Positions 17,671-38,505 of a DNA stretch of 64,000 nucleotides are shown one piece after another. Source of the stretch: Elusimicrobiota bacterium. GTDB taxonomy: Bacteria > Elusimicrobiota > UBA8919. Numbering within the stretch: the first letter of the stretch is position 1; each line of letters begins with the position of its first letter. The position numbers and the translations under genes were made by a program. The stretch lies in contig JBBAAR010000001.1 in assembly GCA_041658185.1 (NCBI GenBank), forward strand, positions 122,400 through 186,399, in the 5' to 3' direction. The notes beneath the pieces were generated by a model. It was not told where the DNA came from, did no database searches, and saw only the letters and a program-made list of their open reading frames with translations.

Positions 17671-19256
17671 TTTATCTTTCCCGTTAACAAAAATCTTTTT
17701 GTGTAATCGTCAACCGTCTCCAGATTTATGCGGGGATAATCCACATCCTCTGCGACATGAAAATGCCTGTCTTCAAGGGTGTTTCTTCTCATAAAATACT
17801 GGGCTGAAATATCCCAATCAATAATCCAAATCTTAAAACCCGCACCGCCGGAAACAGCCACCGTCTGGGAACCCTTTCTTGAATAATCCGGAAGATACGC
17901 AATCCCGTACCTGAAAATAAAATCCCTTCTTACCTTATGACGGGCGCCGGCCTGCCAGGACAATGTATCTGCCCACCCGAGGTTTGTCCAGACGCCGCCG
18001 GTAGCTTTCACCCGGGCTGCAGACCACTTTGTGTGAATAAAATCAAATGAAAATGTCGGCTCACTGACACCCGGAAATTTGAAGGTCAACCCGTAAGATA
18101 TCGCCGAAGGATATTCGTATTGATATTTGATATTTGTTAAAGTTGCCGCACCTGATATATTGTTTTCCAAGTTTGTTTTTAACTTATCCTCAATCTCTTT
18201 TTCCGGACGATACGAAACGCCTATTTTAGTTCTCGGGGTTACTTCATATGATGCTCCGATAAGATACAGCGAACCGCTTATTGAATGAGTCGTCGTTGTT
18301 GATATGTCCGCGATTATTTGTCCCCTGTTTGAAAGGAGTGTCCCGTAGTCAATCTCCTCAATTTTGCCCTCCGGCTCACCGTATAAATTCCATAATGATA
18401 TGCCTATTGCAAGAGGTTCAACCGGATAATAATTCAACCCTCCGCCGATTGCATAAATCAACCCCCGGGATGTAATTTTATTTGTTTCGGTGCGCTGGGT
18501 TGACGAGTAATTGTTCTCCTCATAAAAATAGTTGAAATCGCTTAGTTCCGTTTCACACACTGCAACCGAAAGTTTGTTTTTTATTACCGGCTGGGAAATC
18601 CCGATACCTGAAAACCGGCCGAAAGAATTCTTGTTCGGCACGGTGGTACCGGCAGAATCATTTCTAACTTTTCTTCCATAAATTGAAAGAAGACCGCCGG
18701 ATAAAACAAACTGTCCGTTGTCAACGGAAATAGTCGCCGGATTTATAAAGACAGATGCCGGCTCATCATTAACAGAAACAGCAGTGCCGCCGGCCGCCGC
18801 AGATGCCGCCGTAAAACCTACCGCATTATCGCCTAACTGTAAAAACGACCCGCGATAGGTGTAGGAGTAAAGAAAGGTTAAAGGTATAAGGTTTAAGGTT
18901 AAAATTAAAATAAGAGCAGAGCGGATTTTTTTGACGGTAGATGTAAAAATACTTATCAGTTCATCTGTTTCTGCAAACAAGTTTTTTACATCTTCTTTTT
19001 GAACTAATCCAGCACCAAGTAATAATCTTAACCAATATCTTGTTTCATTTGCTTCTTTGCGTGAAATGTTTATACTATGAGAAAAATCCTTTCTTGTTAA
19101 TCCGGAATACGCTTCTTCAATATTCGCTCCGACTGATGTACCTGAGCGAAGTATTTGGTCACCCAAAGTTTTGGCTATCTGGTTTTGGGGTAATTTCTGC
19201 ACCAGTTTTATTATTTGTAAAGCGAATTTATAAGTCCGTTCTTTTAAATTCTGCAT
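17664..19256 (-). CDS. in-frame fusion ORF: N-terminal four-helix-bundle protein (23S rRNA IVS protein family) + FadL/PorV-like OM beta-barrel
   Basis: Residues 1-113 (ERTYKFALQII...SGTSVGANIEEAYSG...RKEANETRYWLRLL) match the TIGR02436/PF05635 four-helix-bundle family. The ORF then continues without a stop into a repeat-B-encoded signal peptide (SALILILTLNLIPLTFLYS) and a barrel with NPATI and a C-terminal ...GKIKW. Confidence 0.55.
   Translation of the reverse strand: MQNLKERTYKFALQIIKLVQKLPQNQIAKTLGDQILRSGTSVGANIEEAYSGLTRKDFSHSINISRKEANETRYWLRLLLGAGLVQKEDVKNLFAETDELISIFTSTVKKIRSALILILTLNLIPLTFLYSYTYRGSFLQLGDNAVGFTAASAAAGGTAVSVNDEPASVFINPATISVDNGQFVLSGGLLSIYGRKVRNDSAGTTVPNKNSFGRFSGIGISQPVIKNKLSVAVCETELSDFNYFYEENNYSSTQRTETNKITSRGLIYAIGGGLNYYPVEPLAIGISLWNLYGEPEGKIEEIDYGTLLSNRGQIIADISTTTTHSISGSLYLIGASYEVTPRTKIGVSYRPEKEIEDKLKTNLENNISGAATLTNIKYQYEYPSAISYGLTFKFPGVSEPTFSFDFIHTKWSAARVKATGGVWTNLGWADTLSWQAGARHKVRRDFIFRYGIAYLPDYSRKGSQTVAVSGGAGFKIWIIDWDISAQYFMRRNTLEDRHFHVAEDVDYPRINLETVDDYTKRFLLTGKIKW
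18872..18912. repeat. repeat family B forward arm
   Basis: aaggttaaaggtataaggtttaaggttaaaattaaaataag. Confidence 0.6.
18915..19256 (-). other. four-helix-bundle (IVS-protein family) module nested between the two arms of a family B repeat
   Basis: Occupies exactly the space between the inverted arm (19258-19305) and the forward arm (18872-18912). Confidence 0.6.
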
Positions 19257-19257
19257 A

Positions 19258-19305
19258 TTTTAACCTTTAACCTTTTATTTATACCTTTTATTTATACCTT
19301 TAACC
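19258..19305. repeat. repeat family B inverted arm
   Basis: ttttaacctttaaccttttatttataccttttatttatacctttaacc, followed by a perfect hairpin ccgacgc-taaa-gcgtcgg at 19306-19325. Confidence 0.6.
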
Positions 19306-19324: not shown

Positions 19325-20566
19325 CTACCATTTATATCCTACCGTTGACAAAAGTTTTAACCGGCTTTCAACCACATCGTCAAATCCGGTTAATTGCTGC
19401 GAAATCCTTTCTTGCGTTGATTGCCTCCACGCATATTCTCCCGCCACATCAACAATAGCCCGTCCCACAATAATTCCCAATCCGAATGAAACGGAAGGCA
19501 GCGCTTCCGACGGATTCGGGTAATCCGGCAGATACGAAAAACCGTACCGTAAAGTTGTTTTTTGCGACGGCGAATGTTCTAATCCCAAATGATATTCCCA
19601 TACATTTTTATACAATGGATTTTTTTTGTCTTTCGTTTGTTTTACATTGTTGAGTTTGGTTATCCAGTATCTGGAATCCCCCCAGTTTGAAAAAATCGCA
19701 TCAAAAGTTATTTTTGAATCGTTACTGTCTTTGAAATTATAATTCGCGCCGAAGCCCAGATTATACGGCATTTCAAATATGGAATCGGTGGCGGTAAAAA
19801 CACTGCCGGTACTGTCTTTATCATTTACTTTCAGAGCAAAATTTGAACGATACGCGAGCCCGAAATTAAATTTATCCTCATATATAAAATTACCGCCGAA
19901 AATGAAACTGTCGCCCGTCAGCGTCTGGTAGTCGGATGTCTTCTTAGGCAAAGCACCCGTCTGTAAGTATGTGTAGTCGGTTAGGTTTTCACCTCTTCCC
20001 CAAAGATATGTAAATCCCATAGATACCCAGTCAGCCATCACCCAATTCATACCCAGCGCCCAATTGTGAAACCCGCCCGCTTTTTCAATTATGTCGTTTG
20101 TACCGGCCGAAGTATCCGCTTCCTCAAAATTGTAGTCGGAGTTCAAGTCGGAAAAAAAGCCGAAACCAAAAACAACATCGTTCCTTTTTGACGCAGACCA
20201 TAAAATTGATGCGGAAGGCATTTGAAAATACAGGTTATCCGTTGTTACATAATCGGTGCTCAAATAAGAATGATTCCTTTTGTCAAAAAACAAAACAAGC
20301 CCCGGCGAAACATTTGCAAGACCCTTTTGCCCGGCGTCAAGTTTCATCAGCGAAGGATTGGCGTATAATGATGAGGATTCATTATTAGAGGCAACACCGG
20401 CGCTGCCAAGTGCTAACGAACGGGCCGAAAGTCCGCGTACCGGCTCACCCAGGTTCCAGTAAGAATCAAGGGAAGAATAGCCGGAAAGGAAGGTTAAAGG
20501 TATAAATAAAAGGTATAAATTAAGGCAAATAACTTTAATAATATGATTTTTAATTTTCAATTCCAT
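19325..20566 (-). CDS. FadL/PorV-like outer-membrane beta-barrel protein
   Basis: Signal peptide LNLYLLFIPLTFLSG (from repeat B), GSAGVASNNESSSLYANPS hatch motif, and a C-terminal ...GYKW. Confidence 0.55.
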   Translation of the reverse strand: MELKIKNHIIKVICLNLYLLFIPLTFLSGYSSLDSYWNLGEPVRGLSARSLALGSAGVASNNESSSLYANPSLMKLDAGQKGLANVSPGLVLFFDKRNHSYLSTDYVTTDNLYFQMPSASILWSASKRNDVVFGFGFFSDLNSDYNFEEADTSAGTNDIIEKAGGFHNWALGMNWVMADWVSMGFTYLWGRGENLTDYTYLQTGALPKKTSDYQTLTGDSFIFGGNFIYEDKFNFGLAYRSNFALKVNDKDSTGSVFTATDSIFEMPYNLGFGANYNFKDSNDSKITFDAIFSNWGDSRYWITKLNNVKQTKDKKNPLYKNVWEYHLGLEHSPSQKTTLRYGFSYLPDYPNPSEALPSVSFGLGIIVGRAIVDVAGEYAWRQSTQERISQQLTGFDDVVESRLKLLSTVGYKW

Positions 20567-20600
20567 AATTTTAACCTTAAACCTTATACCTTTAACCTTT
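20489..20600. repeat. repeat family B copy
   Basis: aaggttaaaggtataaataaaaggtataaattaaggc...ttttaaccttaaaccttatacctttaaccttt. Confidence 0.65.
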
Positions 20601-20605
20601 CCCCT

Positions 20606-22681
20606 CTACCATTTATAATCCACCCTTACTTCCCACTTATTGCCGTAGCCCGGGTCAACCGTATTATAATACTCGTCGTTGAAAAACTCATCCGCCGACC
20701 ACTTGTATTTATCTGTGAACCTCATTTTTATCTTAGCGTATCTTGAAAGTTTGTCGGTTACCTGAAGCCAGAACTGACGGGACTCCTTCCCGCTTTTTCT
20801 TAAATCACTATCGGCAAACTTTAACTCGCCTGCAATTTCAAGGTTTCCTGTTATATCATATGTGGTGCGGGTAGTCACTTCATCCTTTGGAAGATATAAA
20901 GTCGGGGTACCGGCATAATCTTCTATGTATTTGTATTTTATAAGCAAATCGCTTACTTTTGAAGGTCTGAATTTCAACTGGAAATTAGTGGTCACCGTCA
21001 TTTTTTCCGAATACTCCACATTTTTGTAGATGTCCTTGTCTTTCCATTTCCTATCGATTTGAATATTCACTCCCCGTGGGAGTTTCCAATTGTATTTCAG
21101 GTAAATCTCCCTGTCAGTAGTGGGCGTTTCATAGATGGTATAATACAGACCGGTGACCGTATCCTTTTGGGTTTTTGCAATGTGGTTGAACTGGTCAACA
21201 TAAAATTTCAGTTTCATCGTCCGTGTTAGTTTTGAGTTAAACTCAATGTAATCGCCTTGCTCGTCGCGGTCACGGAACCTTGTTTTATCGGTATGTTTTG
21301 AATAACCCCGCGCCCACGGGTTGTAAAAATCAATATCGTAATCACGGCGAGAATAAATCATATCAATTTTGCCCATTTTTTTGAATGTTTTTATGTACCA
21401 GGCATTGCCCCAGCCGTGAACCTTTGCCATCTCGCCCGCTATATTAAAACCCTTGTAACCGGTTACGAAATTAGTTCCATAGACGGCAAACGATTGTTCC
21501 GGCGGCCAGCGCCAAATTTGTATGTCCGTATCGGAAAATGTTGCCTCTCTTTTTGAAGTGTAGACCGTGCCGCCGATATAAGTCGCATCAATATTAGGTG
21601 TGGCATCCGCTAATTTATATGTCAAATTACTTCCCACAAGCGTTTCCTCATAGACATCTTCAAGCGTGACATAATGAAGCGCACCGTCATCCATTTTAAC
21701 ATATGTCTTGAACGCATAACCGCCTTTTGAATAAAACTCCGTCAAATCAAACCGGCCCTGCTTCATCCGTGCGCCGAAGCCCTTTAATTGCTGTTGGGTT
21801 GAACCCAGCGTATATTTGTCTTGTAAGACGATATTACCTCCGGACAAACTGTAAATACTTGTCTGCGTCTCTTTTGAATATGTATCGTCGGGATAAAGTC
21901 CCTGGGGCGATGATTTTCCGGACGTATCAAATACAAGCCGCTGTCCGAAGCCCGCCCGGAAATTGCCGAGATACGCCTGCTCTATAACGGGTCCCTTTTC
22001 ATAGCCGATGTATGATTTGTTGAGACGATAACCGTGTTCAAACTCGCCGCCGGTAATGTCCCTTGTGTAATAATAATTGACGTACCTGACGTCGCCTTCT
22101 ATAATTGCCCCGAAATTCATATATCTTCCGAACTTCAATAGCCGCAGGCGGAACAAGTCATATGTCCTCGGATAGTCGGTCGTTGCCATTTCCACTTCCA
22201 AGTTTGATTTGGTCCTGAACACGATATCCCCTTTTGTTTTTATTTTTTCCGGCTGCTCGGCGGCAATAAAAATTTTTATATTTTCGTAAGCCACGTCGTC
22301 TATAATCTCCGGGTTGATTAAATCCTTTATATCTTTGTAATAGCCGTGTTTTAGACGGTAATTTACTATTTTTGAGGCATCCGGAGCGGTTAAACCTGGT
22401 AACGACTGCAGCTGGAAAACATCGGCAGTATTTATGTCAATTTTGTCGTCATAGATAGCTAAAAGATTCTCATATGTTTCATACTCAATATCTCCGTCCT
22501 GATACGCCTGTTCAATATCCGAGTCGCTTTCCCACTGGGAAGTATCGTCGGGATCATCCTCGGCGGAATGGAGAAAGGTTAAAGGTTTAAATAAAAGGTA
22601 TAAATTAAAGGTATAAATTAAAAGAAGGGAAAAAATTTTAAATCTTGGCGCCGTTTTTTTATTGTTATTTTTTTCGTCCAT
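20606..22681 (-). CDS. large OM beta-barrel protein with N-terminal (periplasmic) ComEA-type helix-hairpin-helix DNA-binding domain
   Basis: After the signal peptide, DINTADVFQLQSLPGLTAPDASKIVNYRLKHGYYKDIKDLINPEIIDD is a ComEA HhH repeat (approx. 22276-22440). About 550 beta-rich residues follow, ending ...VRVDYKW. Confidence 0.6.
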   Translation of the reverse strand: MDEKNNNKKTAPRFKIFSLLLIYTFNLYLLFKPLTFLHSAEDDPDDTSQWESDSDIEQAYQDGDIEYETYENLLAIYDDKIDINTADVFQLQSLPGLTAPDASKIVNYRLKHGYYKDIKDLINPEIIDDVAYENIKIFIAAEQPEKIKTKGDIVFRTKSNLEVEMATTDYPRTYDLFRLRLLKFGRYMNFGAIIEGDVRYVNYYYTRDITGGEFEHGYRLNKSYIGYEKGPVIEQAYLGNFRAGFGQRLVFDTSGKSSPQGLYPDDTYSKETQTSIYSLSGGNIVLQDKYTLGSTQQQLKGFGARMKQGRFDLTEFYSKGGYAFKTYVKMDDGALHYVTLEDVYEETLVGSNLTYKLADATPNIDATYIGGTVYTSKREATFSDTDIQIWRWPPEQSFAVYGTNFVTGYKGFNIAGEMAKVHGWGNAWYIKTFKKMGKIDMIYSRRDYDIDFYNPWARGYSKHTDKTRFRDRDEQGDYIEFNSKLTRTMKLKFYVDQFNHIAKTQKDTVTGLYYTIYETPTTDREIYLKYNWKLPRGVNIQIDRKWKDKDIYKNVEYSEKMTVTTNFQLKFRPSKVSDLLIKYKYIEDYAGTPTLYLPKDEVTTRTTYDITGNLEIAGELKFADSDLRKSGKESRQFWLQVTDKLSRYAKIKMRFTDKYKWSADEFFNDEYYNTVDPGYGNKWEVRVDYKW

Positions 22682-22715
22682 ATTTTAACCTTTAATTTAT
22701 ACCTTTAACCTTATT
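22574..22715. repeat. repeat family B copy
   Basis: aaaggttaaaggtttaaataaaaggtataaattaaaggtataaatt...tattttaacctttaatttatacctttaacctt. Confidence 0.65.
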
Positions 22716-24330
22716 TTATCTCTATATTATCCTTTACTTCATCAATTATATCCGCAGATATGCCCGGAACTTTTTTCAAATCATCTACCGCCGGCATCGG
22801 GCCGTTTTTCTTAATATATCTTAAGATATTTTGTGATTGCACAGTCGTAAATCCCAAATCCCGCAGTTGAGACATATCCGCTTTGTTGATGTTTATCTTC
22901 CCTGACGGAATCGATTCCTCCGGCGCCGGTGCCGGTTCAACTTTCGGTTTCGTTGCCGGAGTAGGTAGAACTTTAGGAGCAGGGGGGACAACCTTTGGCA
23001 CAACCGGGGGCGGTGTCACTTCCGACTTCCCGCCCGCCGCAGGTGCTTCCGGCTCTTCCGCATCCGGCTGGGGCTCTTCATTTTCATCTGAAACGGTCGG
23101 TTTAGCAGGAACTGGTTTTTCACTTTCTTCCACTTTTTCTTCACTTTTTTTCACCGGTTCTTCCTTCTGCCTCTCCTCCACCGTTATCAGTCCTTCAATT
23201 TTTGAATAAACCCTTCTTGACATCCTCGGAACATTTAATATATCCTCAATTGAGTTGAATTGCCCTTTTTCACCGCGGTAATCAACAACCCGTTTTGCCA
23301 TCACTTTGCCCATACCCGGAAGTTCCGCTATCTCATCCGAGGATGCAGTATTTATATTGACTTTTCCGGCAGGACGAACCGCTTCCTCCGTCACCTGTCC
23401 CTCGGCCTTCCGCCCGTCTACCCTCTTCCTGGTTGTCCTTGCCGCCTTTTTCGTCTTCGGAGCATATTTAATGGTCGCCTCTTGCTCGCCGCCCCATTTC
23501 ATAGAAAGTGAAACTACATGCATTGCATCAAGCGTGGCGTGGGAAGAATAGCCGTAATCAAAATAAACCGTTTTATAATTTGTTCCGAAACCAAGAGCAT
23601 ATTTTGAAGGATTTGTCTGAAGACCCGTGCGAAACACGAAAAAATCGGTGAGACGGAATTCCGTTCCGATGTGGACGGCGACCGGTTCGTCTATTATTTT
23701 CTCAAAATCCATCGCAAAATTCAATCCCGGAAGAGGTCTGTAAAAAATCCCGGTTAAAAATTCTTCCGTCAGATTTTCATTCCCTTTTGATATCTCCGGC
23801 TCGTTTATGTTTTTGGCGGAAACACCGAGGGCAAAGTCCCCTGAAACCCTTGCCAGAACGCCCAAATCCAGCCCGAATGCGGAATCACTGCCATATTCCT
23901 TGATTTTTATACCCATTGATTTCAAGTTATATCCGAACATTATTCCTTCCGCCAGCCCGAAGCCGTGAGAAAAAATTAAAACGCTTTCTTTGTATTCGGA
24001 GGGACCGAAATCTGAATATAAAAAACCGATGTCGCCGTAGCCCTGAACGGGAAATGCGAATTTTACATTGGTATAACCCAGCCCTTCAACGCCATAAATA
24101 TTCGTATATGTTGAGGCGAACTGGAACGCGGGTATCAGACGCAATCCCGCCGGGTTATAGTCAATAGCGTTGGTGTCGTTGGAAAAACCTACGAAAGCCC
24201 CGCCCATCCCGATAGGTCTTGCCGAGGCGGGTTTTTGCTCAAAAGCAGGGTAGAGCGGAGAGCATAGAGCATAGAGCATAGTAAAAAAGAGCATAGAGCA
24301 TAGAGCGTAGAAAGATTTTTTTGAAAACAT
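22711..24330 (-). CDS. FadL/PorV-like OM beta-barrel fused to two C-terminal ComEA-type HhH domains separated by a Pro/Lys-rich spacer
   Basis: N-terminal PASARPIGMGGAFVGFSNDTNAIDYNPAGL barrel motif. HhH-1 is VNINTASSDEIAELPGMGKVMAKRVVDYRGEKGQFNSIEDILNVP (approx. 23178-23358). A PVK/E-rich linker of about 90 aa follows (approx. 22905-23177). HhH-2 is ININKADMSQLRDLGFTT...LKKVPGISADIIDEV (approx. 22714-22903). Confidence 0.7.
   Translation of the reverse strand: MFSKKSFYALCSMLFFTMLYALCSPLYPAFEQKPASARPIGMGGAFVGFSNDTNAIDYNPAGLRLIPAFQFASTYTNIYGVEGLGYTNVKFAFPVQGYGDIGFLYSDFGPSEYKESVLIFSHGFGLAEGIMFGYNLKSMGIKIKEYGSDSAFGLDLGVLARVSGDFALGVSAKNINEPEISKGNENLTEEFLTGIFYRPLPGLNFAMDFEKIIDEPVAVHIGTEFRLTDFFVFRTGLQTNPSKYALGFGTNYKTVYFDYGYSSHATLDAMHVVSLSMKWGGEQEATIKYAPKTKKAARTTRKRVDGRKAEGQVTEEAVRPAGKVNINTASSDEIAELPGMGKVMAKRVVDYRGEKGQFNSIEDILNVPRMSRRVYSKIEGLITVEERQKEEPVKKSEEKVEESEKPVPAKPTVSDENEEPQPDAEEPEAPAAGGKSEVTPPPVVPKVVPPAPKVLPTPATKPKVEPAPAPEESIPSGKININKADMSQLRDLGFTTVQSQNILRYIKKNGPMPAVDDLKKVPGISADIIDEVKDNIEIK
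24251..24312. repeat. repeat family C forward arm
   Basis: agagcggagagcatagagcatagagcatag...agagcatagagcatagagcgtag; encodes the YALCSMLFFTMLYALCS signal peptide. Confidence 0.65.
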
Positions 24331-24331
24331 T

Positions 24332-24700
24332 TTAATTCTCCTTCAACTTTTTCGTCATTGAATTTATCAGTCCGTTTAACATCTTGGAAATTTCTTCAAG
24401 TTCTTCATATAATTTTCTAAATTCTTGGTGTTCTAAATACTTTTGACCTAATGCTACTTCAAGCAACGGAACACATTCATATGCAGAACCTTTCGCTATT
24501 CTCAAAAACTGGATATATTCTTTTCTGGAATATCTACCATTACCCTCAGCAATATTTGCGGCAATAGAAACAGATGCTCTCCGAAGTTGGTCGGTTAATC
24601 CGAAACATTCTTTTTTAGGAAAATTTGCAGACACTTTATAAATCTCATTTGCAAAGCTCATAGATTTTTTATATACCGTCAAATTTTCAAAATCAAACAT
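24332..24700 (-). CDS. four-helix-bundle protein, 23S rRNA intervening-sequence protein family (TIGR02436-like)
   Basis: FGLTDQLRRASVSIAANIAEGNGRYSRKEYIQFLRIAKGSAYE matches the family signature. Start preferred at the ATG at 24700 (MFDFENL). The stop codon lies 1 nt from the start codon of the following barrel gene. The gene is nested between family C repeat arms. Confidence 0.7.
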   Translation of the reverse strand: MFDFENLTVYKKSMSFANEIYKVSANFPKKECFGLTDQLRRASVSIAANIAEGNGRYSRKEYIQFLRIAKGSAYECVPLLEVALGQKYLEHQEFRKLYEELEEISKMLNGLINSMTKKLKEN

Positions 24701-24702
24701 AT

Positions 24703-24730
24703 CTACGCTCTGTCCTCTACGCTCTCTGCC
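24703..24730. repeat. repeat family C inverted arm
   Basis: ctacgctctgtcctctacgctctctgcc. Confidence 0.55.
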
Positions 24731-24731
24731 C

Positions 24732-27056
24732 TTACATTTTTCTTCCCACCACAATTCTTTTTGAGGATGTTTTTGCGGCGCCGGTTGTTTTATCCAAGGA
24801 CTCAATGTTGACTATGTAGATACCGGTTCTGACTATGTTGCCGTCATCGTCTTTGCCGTCCCAAGTGACGGTAGCGGCTGCGCCGCCGCCGTCGGAATGG
24901 TCAAGAAGTATCCTAACCTGATGCCCGGAAACATCAAAAACCCTCATCGTTATTTGGCTGTTCGCGGGGACAAGATATGCTATTTTTGCCTGACTGTAAG
25001 TTCCGTCTTTATAAGGTGAAAACGGCGACTGGAAGACCTCCATCGTCTTTGTCGTAGTAATCAGCGTTCCGCCGTAATCGCCGTAGCCGGGAGTTGTTGA
25101 ACTTTCCGACCAGTCGGCTTTTGTATCTGTGTCCATCGGTGCGAGTGTGGCTGTGGTAGCAAGACGGTACATTGATTTTGAAGTTGAACCGCTCCACGCA
25201 AAAGAACCGGCGATATATCCTGCCTCATCCGTTGCCTCCGGCGACCACTTGCCCGCCGTAAAAGCGGCATCATATGCCGCCGTAGCTCCGGTATAACTCG
25301 TATCGCTGTTGGCAAAACTCATAAAATCAACAATCGTATCATCGGCATTTTTTAGCGAGATGTTGTTGTCCGTTCCGGTTAAACCCGGGGACGTCTCGTC
25401 CGAGAATAAATCAATATAGCCGCTGGCGTTTTCGTCGGCAGCCGTTTCGTCGCGGGTCTCACCTCTGATACCTGTCGCGCTATTTCCCTTGGATGCCCAT
25501 AGAACTATAAACTTATCTTTTGCGATAGTTCCCATATCGCCGGGGAATGTCTTAATTAAAGTCGTGCCCTCGTATATTTTTACGCTGCTGACATCAGCAG
25601 AGGCGGCAGTAACAAAAATCTCAATAAAATCACCGCCTGAAATTCCGGGCGCAACTTCAGTAATTTTTCCGGTTATAGAACCTGTTCCGCCGGAGGCGGT
25701 AGCGCTGGAAACAAGCCTTCCCAGATTTCTGTCAGCATACCCCAACCAGTCGGATTTTGCATTTGTTGTATCAACCGGAACGCCGTACTCGCTGGTTCTG
25801 CGATTAAGCGTTATTTTGGTGTCCATTAAACCCGCGGTATTGTCCACGGAATTTACCTCGTGTTCCGACACTGAAGTAGCCGCAGGCACCCACTGATTTA
25901 AAACGACCGCCGCATCATACTCTACGTCATAATCAAACTGACCGTCAACTTTGGCAAAAGGGACAAAATCAATCATTGTGCCGGCGGCATTTTTGAGAGT
26001 TAATGTATTCTCGGTAGCGACAATTGTTATGGCGGAAAAAAAGTCCCATTGCCTGTTTCCAAATGCGTTGATGATTGGAACAGCAGCGTTTGTGCCTGAC
26101 TTAAAATGTGCAATTATGTAATCCCCGGAACTTACTGCCACTGACGGAAAAGTGAAAGTCCCTGAATTTGAAACCGCAATCGCGCAACCGCCGATATTTG
26201 CGGTTGATTCAATAACATAAAGTTCCACCGCATCATAGTCACCGCTACTTGACTGGCCCGCATCTATTTCGGTTATAACCGCTTTTATTGAACCGGTACC
26301 GCCGCCGGCGCCGCCGGTATTTACGGCTCCGGGAGAAGTTGACGGTTGAATAGACCAGTCGGATTTTGCCGTTCCGGTATCGTCAGTATCCGTTGAACTT
26401 GAGTCCCTACCAAATGATTTTCCGACAGCGATACTGCCTGAAGCTACACAATCCGCTTGGCCGCTTCCCGTCCATTGAAATTCGGCGACGGCATTATTTA
26501 ACGCTGTGTTGTTGGCGGTTGTCCAAGTCGCATCCTGGTTGGCAAAAGCCATTGCATCTATCGCATCCGGCGTATTGGCGGCATTTCTTAATGTTAAAAC
26601 AGCATCCGTATTAACCAAACTGGGATCTGCCGTATAAAAATCCCAGACATTGTTTGCACCTTTGCCGGAAATGTCATCTTCGCTATTGCTGGTGCCTTTG
26701 ACGCCAAAATGAAGAAGGATATAATCGCCGACACCCGCCGTAGTAAATAAATTAGGAAATGTTTTATTGGCAACGGTTGCCCCCGTACCAGCTACCACCC
26801 AGGTACTTCCCTGAATTATAGCGGAACCTTCCTGCAACACAAGATTTGAATAATTGCCTGCAACGGCGACATAAAACTCTATCCATTCGGCGCCGGCTGC
26901 TTCGGCCGGTGCGACCTCGTTTATCATTATCGGTGATGCGGAAAAAACGAATCCGCAAATGCCGAGAAATAAGGATAAAGTTAAGATAAAAAATCTCTGC
27001 CCGCCAGAGGCGGATTTCGCCCCACAGGGACTTCCGTTGGTCGCTTTTTTCAGCAT
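24732..27056 (-). CDS. secreted surface protein with three lamin-tail-domain (LTD) repeats and T9SS-type C-terminal sorting domain
   Basis: LTD signatures MINEVAPAEAAGAEWIEFYV, ITEIDAGQSSSGDYDAVELYV and ITEVAPGISGGDFIEIFV. C-terminus ...GIYIVNIESLDKTTGAAKTSSKRIVVGRKM is T9SS-CTD-like. Confidence 0.6.
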   Translation of the reverse strand: MLKKATNGSPCGAKSASGGQRFFILTLSLFLGICGFVFSASPIMINEVAPAEAAGAEWIEFYVAVAGNYSNLVLQEGSAIIQGSTWVVAGTGATVANKTFPNLFTTAGVGDYILLHFGVKGTSNSEDDISGKGANNVWDFYTADPSLVNTDAVLTLRNAANTPDAIDAMAFANQDATWTTANNTALNNAVAEFQWTGSGQADCVASGSIAVGKSFGRDSSSTDTDDTGTAKSDWSIQPSTSPGAVNTGGAGGGTGSIKAVITEIDAGQSSSGDYDAVELYVIESTANIGGCAIAVSNSGTFTFPSVAVSSGDYIIAHFKSGTNAAVPIINAFGNRQWDFFSAITIVATENTLTLKNAAGTMIDFVPFAKVDGQFDYDVEYDAAVVLNQWVPAATSVSEHEVNSVDNTAGLMDTKITLNRRTSEYGVPVDTTNAKSDWLGYADRNLGRLVSSATASGGTGSITGKITEVAPGISGGDFIEIFVTAASADVSSVKIYEGTTLIKTFPGDMGTIAKDKFIVLWASKGNSATGIRGETRDETAADENASGYIDLFSDETSPGLTGTDNNISLKNADDTIVDFMSFANSDTSYTGATAAYDAAFTAGKWSPEATDEAGYIAGSFAWSGSTSKSMYRLATTATLAPMDTDTKADWSESSTTPGYGDYGGTLITTTKTMEVFQSPFSPYKDGTYSQAKIAYLVPANSQITMRVFDVSGHQVRILLDHSDGGGAAATVTWDGKDDDGNIVRTGIYIVNIESLDKTTGAAKTSSKRIVVGRKM

Positions 27057-27173
27057 TTCACCCTCCGAAAACTCTATATATTAAAAAGCAAGTTAAAAGT
27101 CAAAAATCAAAAGCAAAAAACAGTGCATATTTTTCACCTTCAATTTTTAACCTTTAACTTTGAACCTTCTATT

Positions 27174-27791
27174 CTATTCTTCTTCCGATGACTCGCTTGC
27201 GGATGTTTTGTATTTATCCATAAGCGCTTTTTCCACGGCGTCTTTCAGTTTTTTATTTGTGATTAAAATCTGTTTTACCCATTTGCCGCCGCCTTCGGGT
27301 TTTCTTGAAGGCCACGAAATCCAGGGACCTTTTCCGCTTTCCATCAATTTGCATTCAATCCGGACGGCATTATTGAAATCAACCGCAGCAAAAACTTTTA
27401 ACGCTGATGCACGGGTAAATCTTGAATATTTTGATATTTTGTATGAAATTTGTTTTGACGCTTTTGCCGACGGTTTTCCTGATTCAACCGCCTTTTCTAT
27501 CTCGTCCTTCGCCTGTTTCGTAAGCGTCTCAAACTGCGGATATTCTTTGCCTGCTTTTGAAACATATGTCGGATATTTAAGAGAGATGCGACCGCCGACC
27601 TTAATCACCTGAATCTCTTTTACCTTGATGCAGTCGTTGAGAACAATCGTTGCCATTTCCTTTACCGCACCGCCGTCCTCTACCGGCGCCTTTTCAACGC
27701 TGGTTACATAAATTTCGTCAGCCGCAAAAACCGGAACTGCAAACGAAACCGCTAAAAGACAACCCAACAATAAACCAAAAACTTTACGCAT
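27174..27791 (-). CDS. secreted protein with two tandem SpoVG-like domains
   Basis: Signal peptide MRKVFGLLLGCLLAVSFAVPVFA. Both repeats match the SpoVG pattern (repeat 1 IVLNDCIKVKEIQVIKVGGRISLKYPTYVSKAGKEYPQF; repeat 2 AVDFNNAVRIECKLMESGKGPWISWPSRKPEGGGKW). Confidence 0.5.
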   Translation of the reverse strand: MRKVFGLLLGCLLAVSFAVPVFAADEIYVTSVEKAPVEDGGAVKEMATIVLNDCIKVKEIQVIKVGGRISLKYPTYVSKAGKEYPQFETLTKQAKDEIEKAVESGKPSAKASKQISYKISKYSRFTRASALKVFAAVDFNNAVRIECKLMESGKGPWISWPSRKPEGGGKWVKQILITNKKLKDAVEKALMDKYKTSASESSEEE

Positions 27792-27807
27792 TTTTGCCTC
27801 CCCTTAA

Positions 27808-27892
27808 CACCAGCGAATTAGAGAATTAGAGAATTAGAGAATTAGTCAAGCAATATCTAATTCTCTGTCGTTTAAACTAATTCTCTTTCGTA
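27808..27892. repeat. repeat family D copy
   Basis: aacaccagcgaattagagaattagagaattagagaattag...aattctctgtcgtttaaactaattctctttcg. Confidence 0.65.
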
Positions 27893-27896
27893 TAAA

Positions 27897-29447
27897 CTAT
27901 TTTACAACCAACTTCCCTTTTATCTGATTCAATCTTGCAGCAGTAATTCCCTGTACTTCCAATAAATCCTCAACCTTCTCAAATCTTCGGTTTTTTCTGT
28001 AATTGACAATGCTCCTCGCCTGAATCCAGCTGAACCCTGCATCGTGAAGAACATCAACATTCGCAGTATTTATGTCCGTTAGGGACGAGCGGAGAGCAGG
28101 GAGCGGAGTTTCTGTCTTCTGTCCTCTATCCTCTATCCTCTGTCCTTTCATTTTCTGTTTCGCCTGTTCAATCTTATTTTTTGATTCTTTATGGTTCGGG
28201 TCAATTTTCAAAACCTCTTCCCATCCGGCAATCGCAAGTTCGTATTCGCCATTCTGGTAGTGTTTGAACGCGGCATCGTAACGCTGTTTTTTAAACTCCG
28301 ATTTTTCCTGCTCGGTTAATTCTTTCGGTTTTTTCTCTTCCGTAACCGCCGGGGGCTTACTTGTAACTGCCGGCGGACGAACGGGAGAAGGCATCGCCGG
28401 AATAATCATCCCCTCATCTTTTGCCTTTTGCTCTTTCCTCTCTAACTTCTTTTTATCTTTTTTCGGCATTGAATACCTGAATGTCAGAGACAGCCGGTGG
28501 CTTCCTGATGTATCCGCCAATTGCAGCGGGAGCAAAAACGCATAGTCAAGTTGCAACCCGGACTCTTTGAACATTTTATTATACGAAAAACCAAGCGAGA
28601 GTTCCCTGTCGTTTCCGCCGAAACGGGCAGCCCAGGTATTGTAATTAAACCATGTCTCAACACCGCCGGAAATTTTCATATCGGCATCGTTATCGGCAGG
28701 TTTTCTGTAAGAGACATCAACCGTAGGGGTGATATTTTCAAAAAACTTCCAGTCGCCGATGCGATAGGCAGTTCCGAATTTTACAATCATCGGGACTTTA
28801 TCCTCGGTTTTAAGTCCTACATCCGGTTGTAAAATATTTAACGCCGAAAGTCCGAATGAAAAATCGGACGGTTTCAATAAAAATCCTATGTCCGGAGTAA
28901 ATCCGCCCGCGGATGTTTTGTCAAACACCGGGTCGGCGATATTTTTTGTTCTGTCATCAAGCGTATAAGAATGCGTAAGATATTTCAAGTTAAGACCGGC
29001 CATAAACGGAAATCTTATGCCGAGAGAGGAAGCAATATCGCATGAATAACTTGCCGAAATCGTGTTCTCCCTGTAAAATCCCCATAGTGCAAAATCGGTT
29101 ATTGTAAATCCAAAAGCCCCTATTTCCGTCGGATAAACTCCGGCTGCAAACATCTGGGAGAGATTTACATCATCAATTCCCATAAAAAGTTTGTTGTACA
29201 TAAATGTCGTTTCCAGCATTTCAAGTTGAGCAATTCCCGCGGGATTCCAAAGCGTTGCCGCCGGCTCGTTGGCAATAGCGGTAAATGCGTTGCCCATTCC
29301 GCCCGCACGGGTCCCCCAGCCGGTATCCTGGAAAGCGGCAAAAGACAGTGAACAAAAGTGAACAAAAGTGAACAAAAGTGAACAAAAATAAATGCTTTTT
29401 TTCACTTTATTCCAATTATTTTTTCTCTGGTTTAATATTTTAATCAT
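27897..29447 (-). CDS. FadL/PorV-like OM beta-barrel + TPR-like segment + C-terminal ComEA-type HhH domain
   Basis: N-terminal TRAGGMGNAFTAIANEPAATLWNPAGI barrel motif, a TPR-like stretch (YDAAFKHYQNGEYELAIAGWEEVLKIDPNHK), and a C-terminal DINTANVDVLHDAGFSWIQARSIVNYRKNRRFEKVEDLLEVQGI ComEA HhH. A family C repeat lies inside the coding region at 28084-28150. Confidence 0.65.
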   Translation of the reverse strand: MIKILNQRKNNWNKVKKSIYFCSLLFTFVHFCSLSFAAFQDTGWGTRAGGMGNAFTAIANEPAATLWNPAGIAQLEMLETTFMYNKLFMGIDDVNLSQMFAAGVYPTEIGAFGFTITDFALWGFYRENTISASYSCDIASSLGIRFPFMAGLNLKYLTHSYTLDDRTKNIADPVFDKTSAGGFTPDIGFLLKPSDFSFGLSALNILQPDVGLKTEDKVPMIVKFGTAYRIGDWKFFENITPTVDVSYRKPADNDADMKISGGVETWFNYNTWAARFGGNDRELSLGFSYNKMFKESGLQLDYAFLLPLQLADTSGSHRLSLTFRYSMPKKDKKKLERKEQKAKDEGMIIPAMPSPVRPPAVTSKPPAVTEEKKPKELTEQEKSEFKKQRYDAAFKHYQNGEYELAIAGWEEVLKIDPNHKESKNKIEQAKQKMKGQRIEDRGQKTETPLPALRSSLTDINTANVDVLHDAGFSWIQARSIVNYRKNRRFEKVEDLLEVQGITAARLNQIKGKLVVK

Positions 29448-29510
29448 TGTTTCTTAACTTCCTTTCACTTTCTTCCACTTTCCTTCACTTCCTTTCACTG
29501 TCCCATCACT
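29345..29510. repeat. repeat family A copy (arms about 60 bp apart)
   Basis: gtgaacaaaagtgaacaaaagtgaacaaaagtgaacaaaaataaatgc ... cctttcactttcttccactttccttcacttcctttcactg. Confidence 0.7.
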
Positions 29511-32500
29511 TAGCCAACACCACTGCGCCGGTGCGCTTTTCGCCGCTTACCGCTTCAACTTTATAAATATAAACGCCGGATTCCAGGACATTGCCGTCGT
29601 CGTCTTTACCGTCCCAGTCAAGATATGCCTGGTTATTTCCGTCAACAGTTCTAATCTTTTTACCGGTAACATCGTAAATTTCAATTTTAACTATATTGCT
29701 GTCGCATATAAAATGAGCTATATCGTTTTTACCGTCAACGGTAGCGGGAGTAACGAATTTCTCGGATGCCGTAGGTTTAACGGGTATTGCACCCTTCGGG
29801 AAAACCGCGAAAAGTGTGAAGTGGTCCACATAGCCGGAAACGGTATTTTTCACGGTATCAACAGTTCCGCCGATATAACGCCACTCCCAGTTATCCCAAT
29901 AGTATATGCGTAAATTCGTCTCCAAAATGCCGGGACGGTCGTCAATTTCACCGTCGCTGTTCTGGTCAAGGTATCTTATCGTTAAAATTATCGGTTTTTT
30001 GAAATGTGTGTTGTCGGGTGTGAAATCAAAGCAAACAATGGGCGCAGTGCTGACCGATGCAATAGTGGAAGTGTTTTCATTTTTGAAAGCCGAGGGGGGA
30101 GGCGTTAAATCACCGGGGTAACCCTCCTGTAAAATCGCTATAGGAACATTTGTTGCAAGCGCACCGGCTGGAATTGTAACGGACGTTTCACCGTCCGTCT
30201 GGTCGCCGTCGGAAACCGTCAGAGTACCTCCGCCGGCTGTCAGTGTTATAACTGCCGTCTGAGTTTTTACATCAACCGTCGGGGCGGTCGCAGCAGTTTT
30301 TGTATCTCCGTTAATAACAATATACCCGTAGTTTGATGCGACATCCTTTGCCTCAATATAGTATTTGAAATCAACCAGAAACGCCGCACCAATAGGACCT
30401 ATTTTGAAAGTGTAAAGGTCGCCGATGTTGGTCGCCGTTGAGACCTCTATCCAACTGCCGCCGGTCAACTGGTAATAAAGTTTTGCGGATGTAACCGGTT
30501 GAATTGAACCGTTATTATCGGTATCAGTAATGGTAGCGACAAAAATCGCATAGCCGCCTAAAACATTAATTTCTGTTACCAGCGTGTGCGTAACGGTCGG
30601 CGGAACGGTATCGGGATTGGCAACTTTTTCGTTTGAATAAATTGACTCAACACCGTCGGTATCGCGAGTTGTGAGCACATAGTAATATGCTTTCTGAGTG
30701 CGGGGTGAAACAATCGGGTCGGTATAACTCGTTCCCGTAGAAGTTGAACCGGCAAGCGTGTAAGGGCCGCCGGAAACGATTGAATAATAAATTCTGTATG
30801 ACGAGAAATTGCTTGCCGTAAAGTCCGGCGAATGCGTCCAGACAAGATTGATATTACTTCCCGCATAATTCGCCGAAACAAGAACCGGCGGCGCAATAAA
30901 CGGTGCGGTTGAGACGGCAGAGGAATACCCGCTTTCAAGTGCGATTGAATAAAGTCCGTTCAACTGGTCCCCTTTATCAACCGCTACTATTCTGAAATAA
31001 TATGTCACGCCGTTTGTTAAACTTGTTATGTGAAGCGGATTAGAAGAACTGTATAGTGCGGGATAATTTGTTGTAGAACATAACACAACATTACCGTCAA
31101 ATTTTGTAGCAAAAGTGAATGTCGCTCTGTAGACCCAGTATTTTTCTATATCATCATTGCCGGGTTTAAGTGTTGAATTTGTCCACCAGATATTAACGGC
31201 GGTATTTGATGAAACAACAGTCACTGCGGTCGGTTCATTCGGTGCCACATCATATGCGGCGGCATAAGAAAGCGTATTTACAAAAGTTCCCGTTGACCAA
31301 CCCGCCCAGTTGCTGGCAACTTCATCCCTGTATTTCAGCGCAAAATAATATGATGTTCCGGGGTTAAGCCCTGTTACAATAGTAGAATACGGCTCCCGGG
31401 TTACAGTATTTGTTGACACATCAGGACGTATTGTTGCATTACTAAAATCCGTGTCATTTCCTATCGGATTTGTAGAGTACGCCACCCGGTATTCGCCGCC
31501 GGAAACGTTGCCGACTGTTCCGTCGTCGCCGGGAGCCGTCCATCTCAAGTTGACCTCGCCGTCATTTGTTCCGGTTAAAGCAGTCAAGTCGGAAATGTTA
31601 TTCGGCGGTACGGTCTGGACATATGCATATGCGGAGGTGTTTTGTGTAAAAGGTGCATCGGCGGTTGACTTCCACACAGACCAGTTTGTAGAAATTTCAT
31701 CCCGCGCCTTTATCGCAAAATGATAGAGCACATTGTTTCCTAAAAGCCCTGTTACTACTCTTGAACAAGCCGTTAAAGGCAATAGCGAAGAAGTTGATAT
31801 CACGATAGTATTTGCAGCAGACACTGAGCCATAATTTGAATTGCTTATAATATCTGTTGATGAATATTTTATTTCAAATGCCGCATTGTTAAGCGTCCCC
31901 ACAGTTCCGTCATCGCCGGGCGATGTCCACTGCAAAATTATCTGCCCGTCATCGCTCCCGGTTAAAGCGGTCAAATCGGAAATATTATCGGGCGTAACGT
32001 TCACAACGGTTGCATATGCGGAAGTGTTGACGGTTAAATCATTTGCTGATGAAGTCCACACGGACCAGTTTGTAGAAATTTCATCCCTCGTCTTTATCGC
32101 AAAATAATACAGAACGTTGTTACCTAATAAATTATATATGGTAGTTGTACAGGCAGTTAATGGCTGAAGTGAGGTCGTTGTAATCGTAACGGTATAACTC
32201 GGTGCCGGCGGAGAATCGTAATTGGAACTATTTATAATACCTGTTGAAGAGTATTTTATCTCAAAAACGCCGGTAAGATTGCCGACCGTCCCGTCATCGC
32301 CGGGCGATGTCCACTGCAAAATTATCTGCCCGTCATCGCTCCCGGTTAAAGCGGTTAAATCAGAAATCCCGGCAGGCGGAAGGGTATCAGGCGGTTGTTC
32401 CGGCGCCGAAGAAGAGTTTTTGGCAAATCTATAAGTTGAATGAAAAGTGTAATCTGCGTCGTTATTATCAGAATCATAGCCGCATCCGTTTGGCGAATTG

Positions 32501-36378: not shown

Positions 36379-36464
36379 TGCGGGTTTCTTAAAACGACAA
36401 TTTATATTTTTGTGCTTTTTTACTTTTTCCGTTTTTCACTTTACCGTCGGTAGAACAAAACCTA

Positions 36465-36525
36465 TTCAACTGGTTTCGCAACTACGGAAGTAGTTGAATA
36501 CTGACTCAAAAAAAATATAGCGCAA
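36465..36525. repeat. REP-like palindromic element (GTAGTTGAAT family)
   Basis: aacctattcaactggtttcgcaactacggaagtagttgaatactg, with a caactac-GGAA-gtagttg hairpin; just downstream of the 36593..37582 gene. Confidence 0.6.
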
Positions 36526-36592
36526 AGAACCAATCACATTTTTATTATTTTGCTTTTGCCAAAATTAAGTATACCATAAAAATCCAATCTTG

Positions 36593-37582
36593 TCAAGGGT
36601 TTTTTTCGGTTTCAATAATAAATTTTTTACCGTCGGTTCTAACGGTAATGTTCCCGTCTTCATCCGTCCTGTAAATACTTATATCCGCATCCTGCAATTT
36701 TGCGAGAACTCCGGAATACGGATGCCCGAAATTGTTTCTTGCACCGACGGAAATAACAGCAATTTCCGGATTAACCGCTTTTAAGAATTTTCCAGATGTT
36801 GATGTCGCGGAACCGTGGTGGGCAACTTTCAATATATTTGATCTTATTTTGTCACCATAAATTTGGAGTACATTATCCTCCGCTTCATATTCCATATCTG
36901 CCGTAAAAAAGAAACTTACATCTCCATAAATAAGCCGGATTATTACAGAATTGCTGTTTTCTCCCTCAAAATAAAAATCCTTCGGCGGAGCAAAAACTTC
37001 AAACTTTACCGACGGGTCTACGTCAATAACATCTCCCTGCCTGACAACAGCAGTAACTATTTTTTTCTCTTTTATTACGGCGTGCATTCTTTCATTTTCA
37101 GGCGAGTCGGATTCAATGCCGTTTTCGTAAAGAACCGTCACCGGAAATCTTCTTAAAACCGCGGGCATCCCGCCGATGTGGTCGCCGTCGGGATGGCTTG
37201 CAACCACAAAATCAAGTCGCTTCACATTATGGCTTTCCAAAAAAGGAACGACTATTTCTTCGCCGGGTTCTGCCGACGCCGGACTCCAGTAGGGAGTGCC
37301 GCCGGTATCAATTAAACCGTTTTTTCCGTCCGGAGTTTTTATGAAAATCGAGTCGCCCTGACCGACATCAATAAATGTAACAACAAGTTCCGGGACTCGC
37401 GGTTTATATTCATTCGCCGGAACTTCAAGATATACCTTCGGTTTTGGCGGTTCTTTCGGAAGTGTCGTACACCCGGTAAAAAAACAATTGAAAATTGAAA
37501 ATTGAAAATTGAGAATTAAAATCAAACATATACCATAATTCTTAATTCTTAATTTGTAATTCTTAATTGTCTCTATATTCAT
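36593..37582 (-). CDS. standalone ComEC-type MBL-fold hydrolase, lipoprotein
   Basis: FIDVGQGDSIFIKTPDGKNGLIDTGG, ASHPDGDHIGG and KVAHHGSATS motifs. The signal peptide is encoded by repeat E (ILILNFQFSIFNCFFTGC). Confidence 0.7.
   Translation of the reverse strand: MNIETIKNYKLRIKNYGICLILILNFQFSIFNCFFTGCTTLPKEPPKPKVYLEVPANEYKPRVPELVVTFIDVGQGDSIFIKTPDGKNGLIDTGGTPYWSPASAEPGEEIVVPFLESHNVKRLDFVVASHPDGDHIGGMPAVLRRFPVTVLYENGIESDSPENERMHAVIKEKKIVTAVVRQGDVIDVDPSVKFEVFAPPKDFYFEGENSNSVIIRLIYGDVSFFFTADMEYEAEDNVLQIYGDKIRSNILKVAHHGSATSTSGKFLKAVNPEIAVISVGARNNFGHPYSGVLAKLQDADISIYRTDEDGNITVRTDGKKFIIETEKNP
37487..37565. repeat. repeat family E copy
   Basis: aattgaaaattgaaaattgaaaattgagaattaaaat...ataattcttaattcttaatttgtaattcttaattg. 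Confidence 0.65.
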
Positions 37583-38496: not shown

Positions 38497-38505
38497 TTAT
38501 AGTCG

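Follow-up and report, generated by a model that had tools for sequence, protein, structure and literature searches.

Outer-membrane beta-barrels carrying ComEA-type helix-hairpin-helix modules in an Elusimicrobiota gene cluster: candidates for a DNA uptake apparatus

Within a 64-kb stretch of Elusimicrobiota DNA, hereafter the window, three minus-strand genes, A (20606-22681), B (22711-24330) and C (27897-29447), each encode a predicted outer-membrane beta-barrel joined covalently to one or two helix-hairpin-helix (HhH) modules of the type known from ComEA. We put at about one in two the probability that, as their sequences suggest, these proteins are outer-membrane-tethered equivalents of ComEA, working in a conserved Elusimicrobiota apparatus for the capture or uptake of DNA. 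The modules are joined to two unrelated barrel types, pointing to a single domain having been attached independently, more than once, to outer-membrane anchors in the same gene cluster.

To our knowledge, the way in which DNA gets through the outer membrane has been worked out only for systems built on a secretin and a type IV pilus and for Helicobacter ComB. Whole phyla lack an explanation of this step, including Bacteroidota (with an unusual machinery deduced genetically in Riemerella; PMC8459023) and Elusimicrobiota (PMC8809381); the latter study, on Endomicrobium, lists comEC, comF, comM, dprA and recA for Elusimicrobia, leaves comEA unmentioned and calls the outer-membrane passage unclear. 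A covalent link between a ComEA-type module and a barrel names concrete candidate proteins for this step and makes the claim testable. If A is a DNA conduit, the prediction of competence, or of the use of DNA as a nutrient, from genomes and metagenome-assembled genomes would change; if the modules do not bind DNA, a defined, widespread and uncharacterized outer-membrane family linked to lamin-tail-domain (LTD) proteins would still be in hand. The initial annotation of this DNA knew of no barrel-ComEA fusion, and we likewise found none described in the literature searched, which misses most papers in subscription journals.

ComEA-type modules on two kinds of barrel

The initial annotation had assigned one ComEA module to the N terminus of A, two to the C terminus of B and one to the C terminus of C, and searches with the Pfam model HHH_3 (PF12836, gathering score 27 bits) recovered all of them in exactly these three genes. 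In A, a single module (residues 79-139; 22265-22447, minus strand, as are all features of the three genes) is preceded immediately by the signal peptide plus an acidic stretch (48.4 bits, E = 1e-12). B matches in two stretches (106.6 bits, E = 7e-31), the best of which, module 1 (residues 322-383; 23182-23367), has the canonical GxG in its first hairpin; module 2 (residues ~478-538; 22717-22899) scores E = 3.6e-27 with a local hidden Markov model (HMM) and is modeled with predicted local distance difference test (pLDDT) values above 90. The module of C (residues 458-513; 27909-28076) reaches 42.7 bits (E = 6e-11). These four, all over the Pfam cut-off, are the HHH_3 modules of the window, and Pfam and NCBIfam scans found no free ComEA in its 64 kb.

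Assignment of the modules to the ComEA type is supported by their best sequence and structure matches, which are solved ComEA DNA-binding domains; module 1 of B aligns to the ComEA entries 8DFK and 8DSS and to EEPD1 (9YI2). The NCBIfam model of the ComEA HhH region (TIGR00426, cut-off 53.1) is passed by B with 79.1 bits, A (26.6) and C (32.3) staying below it, and the comE model TIGR01259 (cut-off 152 bits) is reached by none of the three (A 29.4, B 81.4 and C 21.4 bits). Net charge and pI of the modules were not discriminating, as true ComEA domains are likewise acidic overall.

The barrels had all been described as FadL/PorV-like, which stands for B and C and fails for A. B and C are small barrels of the PorV/PorP type. 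B (539 residues) consists of a signal peptide, a PorV/FadL-type barrel, a basic linker, HhH module 1, a proline-rich linker and HhH module 2. Its barrel (residues ~34-278; 23497-24231) is matched by the PorV/PorQ family model (NCBIfam PorV_fam, E = 3.6e-15, under the curated cut-off), and a structural model based on an input of 19 homologues (pLDDT averaging 77 and exceeding 90 in both modules and most of the barrel) runs from the signal helix through short helices at residues 28-65 and 14 strands at residues 70-278, as read from the DSSP string, to the basic disordered linker, module 1, the second linker and module 2. That second linker, 91 residues long with 24% proline, is disordered (residues 386-475; 22906-23175; pLDDT values below 50). 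The top Foldseek matches of B (E ~1e-10 to 1e-11) are FadL and chain F of the type IX secretion system (T9SS) translocon entries 8GL6 and 6H3I, a chain that we take, on our own assignment from the entry titles only, to be PorV.

In C (516 residues), the signal peptide is followed by a PorP/SprF-PorV-type barrel, a charged linker with one TPR-like unit and the HhH module. The barrel (residues ~38-324; 28476-29336) passes Pfam PorP_SprF (PF11751; 45.2 versus a cut-off of 22.3 bits, covering model positions 18-273 of 273), which matches neither A nor B; it also matches PorV_fam (E = 8e-18) and stays below the cut-off of NCBIfam TIGR03519 (49.7 versus 90.55). On the PorV/PorQ model NF033709, B (56.4 bits) and C (65.0 bits) both fall short of the curated 90 bits and A is unmatched, the model being passed by two neighboring barrels, 13359-14444 (137.8 bits) and 38603-39532 (188.2 bits). 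The FadL/TodX model proposed as a check (PF03349, Toluene_X) matches none of A, B and C, and among their neighbors only 17664-19256 passes it (33.5 versus 29.7 bits). The last barrel strands of B and C end in aromatic residues before the tails (...SLSMKW and ...LTFRY, respectively).

Homologues of C (P0072-P0119, P0104, P0116, P0126-P0128) come from sources that, where they name any organism, give Elusimicrobiota/Endomicrobiales or simply 'bacterium'. Their barrel family carries swappable C-terminal tails, most commonly long TPR arrays, and otherwise LysM, FN3 or HHH_3 domains; such interchangeable tails fit a barrel that serves as an anchor for periplasmic modules. As known barrels of the 14-strand FadL/PorV type are narrow and plugged, and B has an N-terminal segment of this kind, it is physically unattractive to let B or C take the place of a secretin, as the initial annotation had suggested for a FadL/PorV-like lateral gate. 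Within the uptake reading, and at the same even odds, B and C would instead be anchors, not channels.

A is a barrel of a separate, uncharacterized type and is not FadL/PorV-like. Its 691 residues comprise a signal peptide, the acidic stretch, the HhH module and a large barrel domain (residues ~151-691; 20609-22231), in which the DSSP string of the model (mean pLDDT 77, predicted template modeling score 0.74) shows ~26 strands over residues 151-689, the last of them aromatic-ended (...DYKW). The predicted structures thus bear out a beta-barrel for A as well as for B. No Pfam or NCBIfam family, PorV_fam and PorP_SprF included, matched the barrel of A, and it is without the N-terminal motif of the 'GMGGA...NPAGL' type, which the small barrels of the window, seven in number, share as judged by eye. 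Foldseek comparison with PDB libraries returned as fold neighbors of A only generic large barrels, namely MtrB, ushers, LptD and TonB-dependent receptors, with AlgE also listed; ushers came out on top, and all matches had template-modeling (TM) scores of 0.3-0.4. The closest solved folds (ushers, MtrB, LptD and AlgE) are barrels that conduct polymers or proteins. With ~26 strands within 547 residues and short loops, A would lack room for a large plug domain. Among the three proteins, only A is a credible candidate for a duplex-DNA conduit.

We also considered that the fusions might be artefacts of assembly or gene calling, that is, chimeric contigs or merged open reading frames (ORFs). The source DNA is a metagenome-assembled genome, and in one neighboring ORF (17664-19256), a four-helix-bundle gene is indeed joined in frame to a barrel gene. 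Against this, an identical B protein is encoded on contigs of separate assemblies (ENA ERZ27247322 and Logan SRR8449812), the ORFs of A, B and C are uninterrupted, and dozens of diverged full-length homologues from NCBI, JGI, ENA and Logan share the domain order of the three proteins, at identities as low as 34-35% for B, 22% for A and ~32% for C. Elusimicrobiota is the name that the sources give to the organisms. On these grounds we rejected the chimera explanation, to which we attach next to no credence, and the fusions can be taken as genuine.

The A-type family and its neighbors in three phyla

A search of 1.84 billion cluster representatives with the barrel part of A alone as the query yielded 128 family members, most of them 600-800 residues long with the barrel behind an N-terminal extension. 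Scored with a narrow custom HMM, at least 85 of the 116 full-length members carry an N-terminal HhH module at about residue 50-90, and a motif search by regular expression adds further carriers (consensus VDLNRASRDELYDLPGL). The family thus combines an N-terminal HHH_3-type module with a barrel of ~550 residues and a conserved FRAGFGQRL motif, and the terminal aromatic residue of A recurs in the family consensus. Scanning one genome per GTDB species with the pattern [FY][RC]AGFGQ[RG]L located 40 loci in three phyla: Elusimicrobiota (Elusimicrobia), many Myxococcota (Haliangiales, Kofleriaceae, Nannocystaceae, Sandaracinaceae and the cultured Paraliomyxa miuraensis) and Bacteroidota (Paludibacter, Bacteroidaceae, Prolixibacteraceae and other Bacteroidales). 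An hhalign comparison of the A profile gave E = 2e-77 for the Paraliomyxa miuraensis protein and E = 9e-23 for a Bacteroidales protein; both alignments span the HhH module and the barrel, confirming homology over both parts. In the Myxococcota proteins, the HhH call rests on the motif search, weak Pfam/NCBIfam matches and hhalign. By these sequence comparisons, the architecture of A defines a conserved, uncharacterized family of Elusimicrobiota, Myxococcota and Bacteroidota.

The gene neighborhoods of this family are partly conserved as well. In Myxococcota, a protein with two to five LTD repeats adjoins the A-like gene in all ten loci tested with Pfam and in locus L009, and phmmer finds an LTD neighbor in ~17 loci; at single loci, a PLD-family protein is encoded directly downstream of the A-like gene (L023) or a metallo-beta-lactamase (MBL) protein nearby (L005). 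LTD domains are known to accompany extracellular nucleases, as in ExeM (PMC6085458) and in a large nuclease protein of a DNA-degrading bacterium (PMC8289736). In Bacteroidota, eight out of ten loci encode, directly upstream of the A-like gene, a PorV-family barrel of ~285 residues that lacks an HhH tail, a pairing that matches that of B with A. An A-like and PorV-like pair occurs in at least one cultured organism, Paraliomyxa miuraensis (strain SMH-27-4, locus L025). The links of A to LTD proteins and to PorV-like barrels thus persist across phyla, and the link to ComEC is confined to Elusimicrobiota.

Elusimicrobiota loci preserve much of the arrangement seen in the window. The order of B, A, three paralogous barrels and a secreted peptidase recurs in loci L003 and L007, and L007 repeats the series of the window as C, two SpoVG genes, LTD protein, B, A, three barrels, peptidase, PorQ-like barrel, orf107 and ComEC. 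In the more distant L047, whose B is 34% identical, a SpoVG-like protein, a PLD-family protein with a T9SS-type C-terminal domain, an MBL protein and a TP_1001-domain protein precede B and A, followed by a FadL-like barrel, further proteins, an S8 peptidase and ComEC. The search of related genomes for the fusion near comEC, one of the checks proposed for the initial annotation, thus found the two in one cluster in both L007 and L047. The LTD protein encoded at 24732-27056 is a conserved neighbor of the B-A pair in L007 and L008, its place being taken by a TP_1001_2nd protein in L047. The three-phylum A family, the persistent links to LTD and PorV-like proteins and the extracellular-nuclease and nucleoside-salvage flavor of the surroundings had been missed by the initial annotation.

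A gene island with a probable role in handling extracellular DNA and a proposed route of uptake

From 50429 down to 1348, the genes of the window all point the same way, and many have envelope or nucleic-acid functions. Two ComEC genes had been noted in this island, and both are real: ComEC 1 (9979-12867, minus strand; 962 residues with DUF4131/OB, Competence and MBL regions) stands at the downstream end of the barrel cluster, and ComEC 2 (50515-52746; 743 residues, a full three-domain ComEC) lies just past the co-directional run, on the plus strand. Between ComEC 1 and A, all on the minus strand, are a PorQ-like barrel (13359-14444), an M6 peptidase (14441-16333) with a C-terminal domain of the T9SS type and three FadL/BamG/PorV-like barrel paralogues (16327-17670, 17664-19256 and 19325-20566). 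Between B and C, the same strand encodes the secreted LTD protein (24732-27056; Pfam LTD and FlgD_ig), which ends in a T9SS-type/FlgD-Ig C-terminal domain, and, adjoining C, a SpoVG-like protein (27174-27791; two Pfam SpoVG stretches) that has a lipobox-like LLGC motif as well as a signal peptide. Beyond C follow, again on the minus strand, a giant surface protein (29506-36378) that combines FN3/LTD content with a C-terminal domain of the T9SS type, a pair of exported MBL proteins (36593-38496), a PorV/PorQ barrel (38603-39532), an ArsR-type regulator (39650-39985) and a secreted PLD-family enzyme, a putative nuclease, with a T9SS-type C-terminal domain (39982-41430).

On this background, we suggest the following route. 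The LTD and T9SS-type C-terminal-domain surface proteins (24732-27056 and 29506-36378), joined by the PLD-type enzyme (39982-41430) and the exported MBL hydrolases, would bind and cut DNA at the cell surface, with the small PorV/PorQ-type barrels keeping the C-terminal-domain proteins in place there. DNA would cross the outer membrane through the ~26-strand barrel of A, whose N-terminal HhH module would grip the incoming strand in the periplasm. B may, in analogy to PorV and its large T9SS translocon partner SprA, dock near A and would supply two further modules on disordered tethers; its 91-residue proline-rich spacer could span much of the periplasm, so that one module might reach toward the inner membrane. 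C would contribute one more module. Together, the tethered modules could rectify DNA diffusion as a Brownian ratchet, in the manner proposed for free ComEA (PMC3879209), and pass the DNA to ComEC (9979-12867), which would import single strands for recombination or nutrition. Of the initial proposal that these proteins form the DNA entry point, the ComEA-type modules, the barrels and the co-directional cluster with ComEC support the general idea, and the FadL/PorV-like gate is unlikely.

As for the fate of the DNA, likely nucleoside-salvage genes and related ones form a co-directional series just upstream of the envelope cluster (43222-50429). Encoded there are an adenosine deaminase, a TPR lipoprotein-like product, a PNP/UDP-type phosphorylase, a DHH/DHHA1 phosphoesterase, a P-loop protein that is kinase-like and weakly matches a deoxynucleoside kinase, and two AP-endonuclease-2/xylose-isomerase TIM barrels. 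Salvage genes next door favor a nutritional use of imported DNA, at least in part. Judging from predicted gene functions, the content of the island argues for the handling of extracellular DNA, with DNA as food being as plausible a purpose as transformation.

A broader proposal is that an A-type protein, together with a PorV-like barrel and/or a multi-LTD protein, forms a previously unrecognized outer-membrane DNA translocon that dispenses with secretin and pilus in all three phyla, with Elusimicrobiota having added the modules of B and C to hand DNA to ComEC. We regard this extension as tentative and, on balance, unlikely. If A did turn out to be a DNA conduit, it would represent a new class of nucleic-acid channel.

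The periplasmic location of the modules, on which the proposed route depends, is expected from barrel topology: even-stranded barrels assembled by BAM keep both termini in the periplasm, and the TPR and LysM tails on the relatives of C point the same way. Alternatively, the modules might be exposed at the surface in an autotransporter-like manner, tethering extracellular DNA as a biofilm anchor or first receptor. The long disordered linkers (B 386-475 and C 326-453) do resemble surface stalks, and the cluster encodes many surface proteins that could plausibly come into contact with extracellular DNA. Nevertheless, both termini are periplasmic in known 14-strand FadL/PorV barrels and in large barrels assembled by BAM, a 14-strand lumen occupied by an N-terminal segment cannot easily thread a folded tail, and TPR tails such as those of C's relatives are typical of periplasmic scaffolds. 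We therefore consider surface exposure highly improbable.

Several observations weigh against a role of A, B and C in DNA uptake. In the alignment, the canonical GxG is present only in module 1 of B; the hairpins of A, of module 2 of B and of C are partly degenerate, and the second hairpin of A has lost its glycines. HhH-like folds that do not bind DNA exist, in PsbU and GspK. A homologue of B encoded at the Elusimicrobia locus L008 (P0015) is without the HhH tail, as are all Bacteroidota partners, so the modules of B are dispensable in some lineages. The Bacteroidales pair sits amid housekeeping genes (FtsH, CdsA and Psd) with nothing DNA-related near, and in Myxococcota and Bacteroidota, ComEC was not found within 10 kb of the A-like gene. 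Finally, the window has Tad-pilus genes at its left edge, so that a secretin may lie beyond the 64 kb. These genes (1348-4322) encode CpaB/RcpC and a 741-residue fusion of a ParA/MinD-like (CpaE-type) domain to the CpaF ATPase; there is no secretin gene between them, and Pfam scans of the main ORFs found no secretin family and no type IV pilin genes in the window. With Tad genes at its edge, the window is too small to conclude that a barrel is standing in for the secretin, as the initial annotation had suggested might be the case.

Some of these points would also be expected if the HhH modules had a structural or protein-binding function, as in PsbU and GspK, on otherwise ordinary barrels whose tails touch peptidoglycan or periplasmic partners. 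The degenerate hairpin glycines, the housekeeping neighborhood of the Bacteroidales pair and the TPR or LysM tails that replace the module on relatives of C's barrel are all compatible with such a function, and weak secondary Pfam matches to PsbU and T2SSK fall on the same residues. For B, however, these matches score 28.9 and 25.9 bits as compared to 106.6 bits for HHH_3, the best matches overall are bona fide ComEA DNA-binding domains, and the neighborhoods are persistently related to nucleic acids (ComEC, PLD, MBL, LTD and SpoVG). A function unrelated to DNA hence seems improbable to us, and we retain uptake or capture of DNA as the preferred reading.

The strongest rival reading is a T9SS-like apparatus for secretion and anchoring, in which A and B would act as a translocon and shuttle pair like SprA and PorV, exporting and surface-anchoring the LTD, PLD, peptidase and giant proteins, and the HhH modules would have a periplasmic docking or regulatory function or bind DNA incidentally. 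It draws on the C-terminal domains of the FlgD_ig/CHU_C/Por_Secre_tail type on four cluster proteins, the best fit of B to chain F of the T9SS translocon entries, the PorP_SprF match of C and the PorQ/PorV/BamG matches of the barrels other than A, B and C. The large barrel encoded beside a large secreted protein in Myxococcota (A-like plus LTD) further recalls two-partner or usher-type export pairs, and ushers top the Foldseek list of A, yet the fold matches of A are all generic. Such an apparatus accounts well for the PorV-like barrels but leaves unexplained why a ComEA-type module is found at the N terminus of A in three phyla and was added independently to B and C, and why ComEC, exported MBL proteins and the SpoVG-like protein are kept together where B has diverged to 34% identity. 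Moreover, Bacteroidota already own SprA and PorV but keep the PorV-like/A-like pair. We consider this rival rather unlikely as a full account; it may be compatible with DNA uptake if PorV-like barrels serve as anchors and the HhH modules handle the DNA.

Further features of the island concern its enzymes. The SpoVG-like protein is conserved beside C and the LTD gene (1594-3382 in L007 and 3580-4692 in L047); SpoVG is normally a cytoplasmic, nucleic-acid-binding protein, and an exported version is unusual. Of three stand-alone MBL proteins, one has a membrane anchor (4507-5625), one a lipobox-like FTGC (36593-37582) and one a plain signal peptide (37579-38496). Their genes share a conserved stretch of DNA with the region encoding the C-terminal MBL of ComEC 1 (10874-10947), and the proteins may be exported ComEC-type nucleases. 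Directly downstream of ComEC 1 are genes for a Cas4-like PD-(D/E)XK nuclease (9134-9739), for a Zn-dependent phospholipase C/S1-P1-type protein (8052-9155) that has a TPR-like tail and whose signal peptide is repeat-encoded, and for a UvrD/PcrA helicase (5672-8050).

Many genes for exported proteins, including A and C, begin inside a long hairpin of short tandem repeats with periods of 8, 10 or 14 nt (start hairpins on the minus strand at 29345-29494, 17545-17680, 22575-22715 and 14300-14445; repeat families at 9092-9129, 19255-19292, 20566-20617, 22680-22717, 27128-27179, 12856-12903, 13269-13316, 27783-27846 and 36459-46679). The purine-rich 5' arm covers the upstream region, including the likely Shine-Dalgarno sequence in C, and the hydrophobic core of the signal peptide, FVHFCSLLFTFVHFCSL and NLYLLFIPLTFL being examples, is encoded by the 3' arm, which is rich in pyrimidines. 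When folded as RNA, these hairpins far exceed shuffled controls in stability (z -3.8 to -5.2), and they may exert translational control over envelope proteins or represent a repeat-borne signal-peptide cassette. Rfam and tRNA scans of the window gave no match.

The barrel cluster also hosts two inserted four-helix-bundle genes of the 23S rRNA intervening-sequence protein/bAvd-like type (TIGR02436), one at 24332-24805 and one forming the first ~115 codons of ORF 17664-19256, where it reads in frame and stop-free into the signal peptide of the FadL-like barrel; the L003 counterpart is a 440-residue barrel without the four-helix-bundle gene. The PorQ-like barrel (13359-14444) bears past its last strand a strongly acidic, proline-containing tail (...EEEELPEQKEETAPEESTDTEQDRE) that is not an HhH module. 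Elsewhere in the window, two GGDEF diguanylate-cyclase paralogues are encoded side by side (55216-57749), and one of them has a GAF domain; a stretch of 146 nt (56185-56330 and 57372-57517) is 71% identical between the two.

Relation to known transport and competence systems

With the T9SS proteins PorV, PorQ and PorP-SprF (6H3I and 8GL6), B and C have their barrel superfamily in common. Just as PorV partners the large SprA, B is encoded beside the much larger barrel A, and the cluster, like a T9SS, encodes several proteins with T9SS-type C-terminal domains. In size class, A (~26 strands) is matched best by MtrB (6R2Q_B), the FimD/PapC ushers and LptD (24-26 strands), which pass or house a polymer or protein; these have no sequence relationship to A, fit it with TM scores of 0.3-0.4 and carry no N-terminal HhH module.

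The function proposed for A, passage of duplex DNA through the outer membrane ahead of ComEA and ComEC, is that of the PilQ secretin with the type IV competence pilus; PilQ is a multimeric secretin that needs a retracting pilus, whereas A is a monomeric barrel. ComEA itself is the periplasmic DNA receptor of natural transformation, as studied in V. cholerae (PMC3879209) and in the B. subtilis and Geobacillus structures (8DFK and 8DSS; PMC9747964). A, B and C share with it the HHH_3 module, the presumed compartment, the genomic partner ComEC and the proposed role of binding incoming DNA and biasing its movement inward. In contrast to the small ComEA, which is soluble or anchored in the inner membrane, they are proteins of 516-691 residues that consist mostly of outer-membrane barrel, with the module at the N terminus of the barrel in A, at the C terminus of a PorV/PorP-type barrel in B and C, and doubled with a proline-rich spacer in B. 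The oligomerization domain of Gram-positive ComEA is missing from all three.

The nearest precedent is a transposon screen in Riemerella anatipestifer, which showed that transformation needs the barrel RA0C_RS04915, the surface protein RA0C_RS04920 and the HhH protein RA0C_RS02645, along with ComEC, ComF and DprA, and recovered no type IV pilus genes; DNA passage through the barrel was proposed there, not demonstrated (PMC8459023). The parts are separate in Riemerella, where the barrel bears a carboxypeptidase-regulatory-like domain instead of an HhH module and the surface protein is of the choice-of-anchor J/DUF5689 type, not LTD. Compared by description only, the Riemerella set and the Elusimicrobiota cluster nonetheless agree in combining a barrel of the outer membrane with a surface protein, an HhH component and ComEC.

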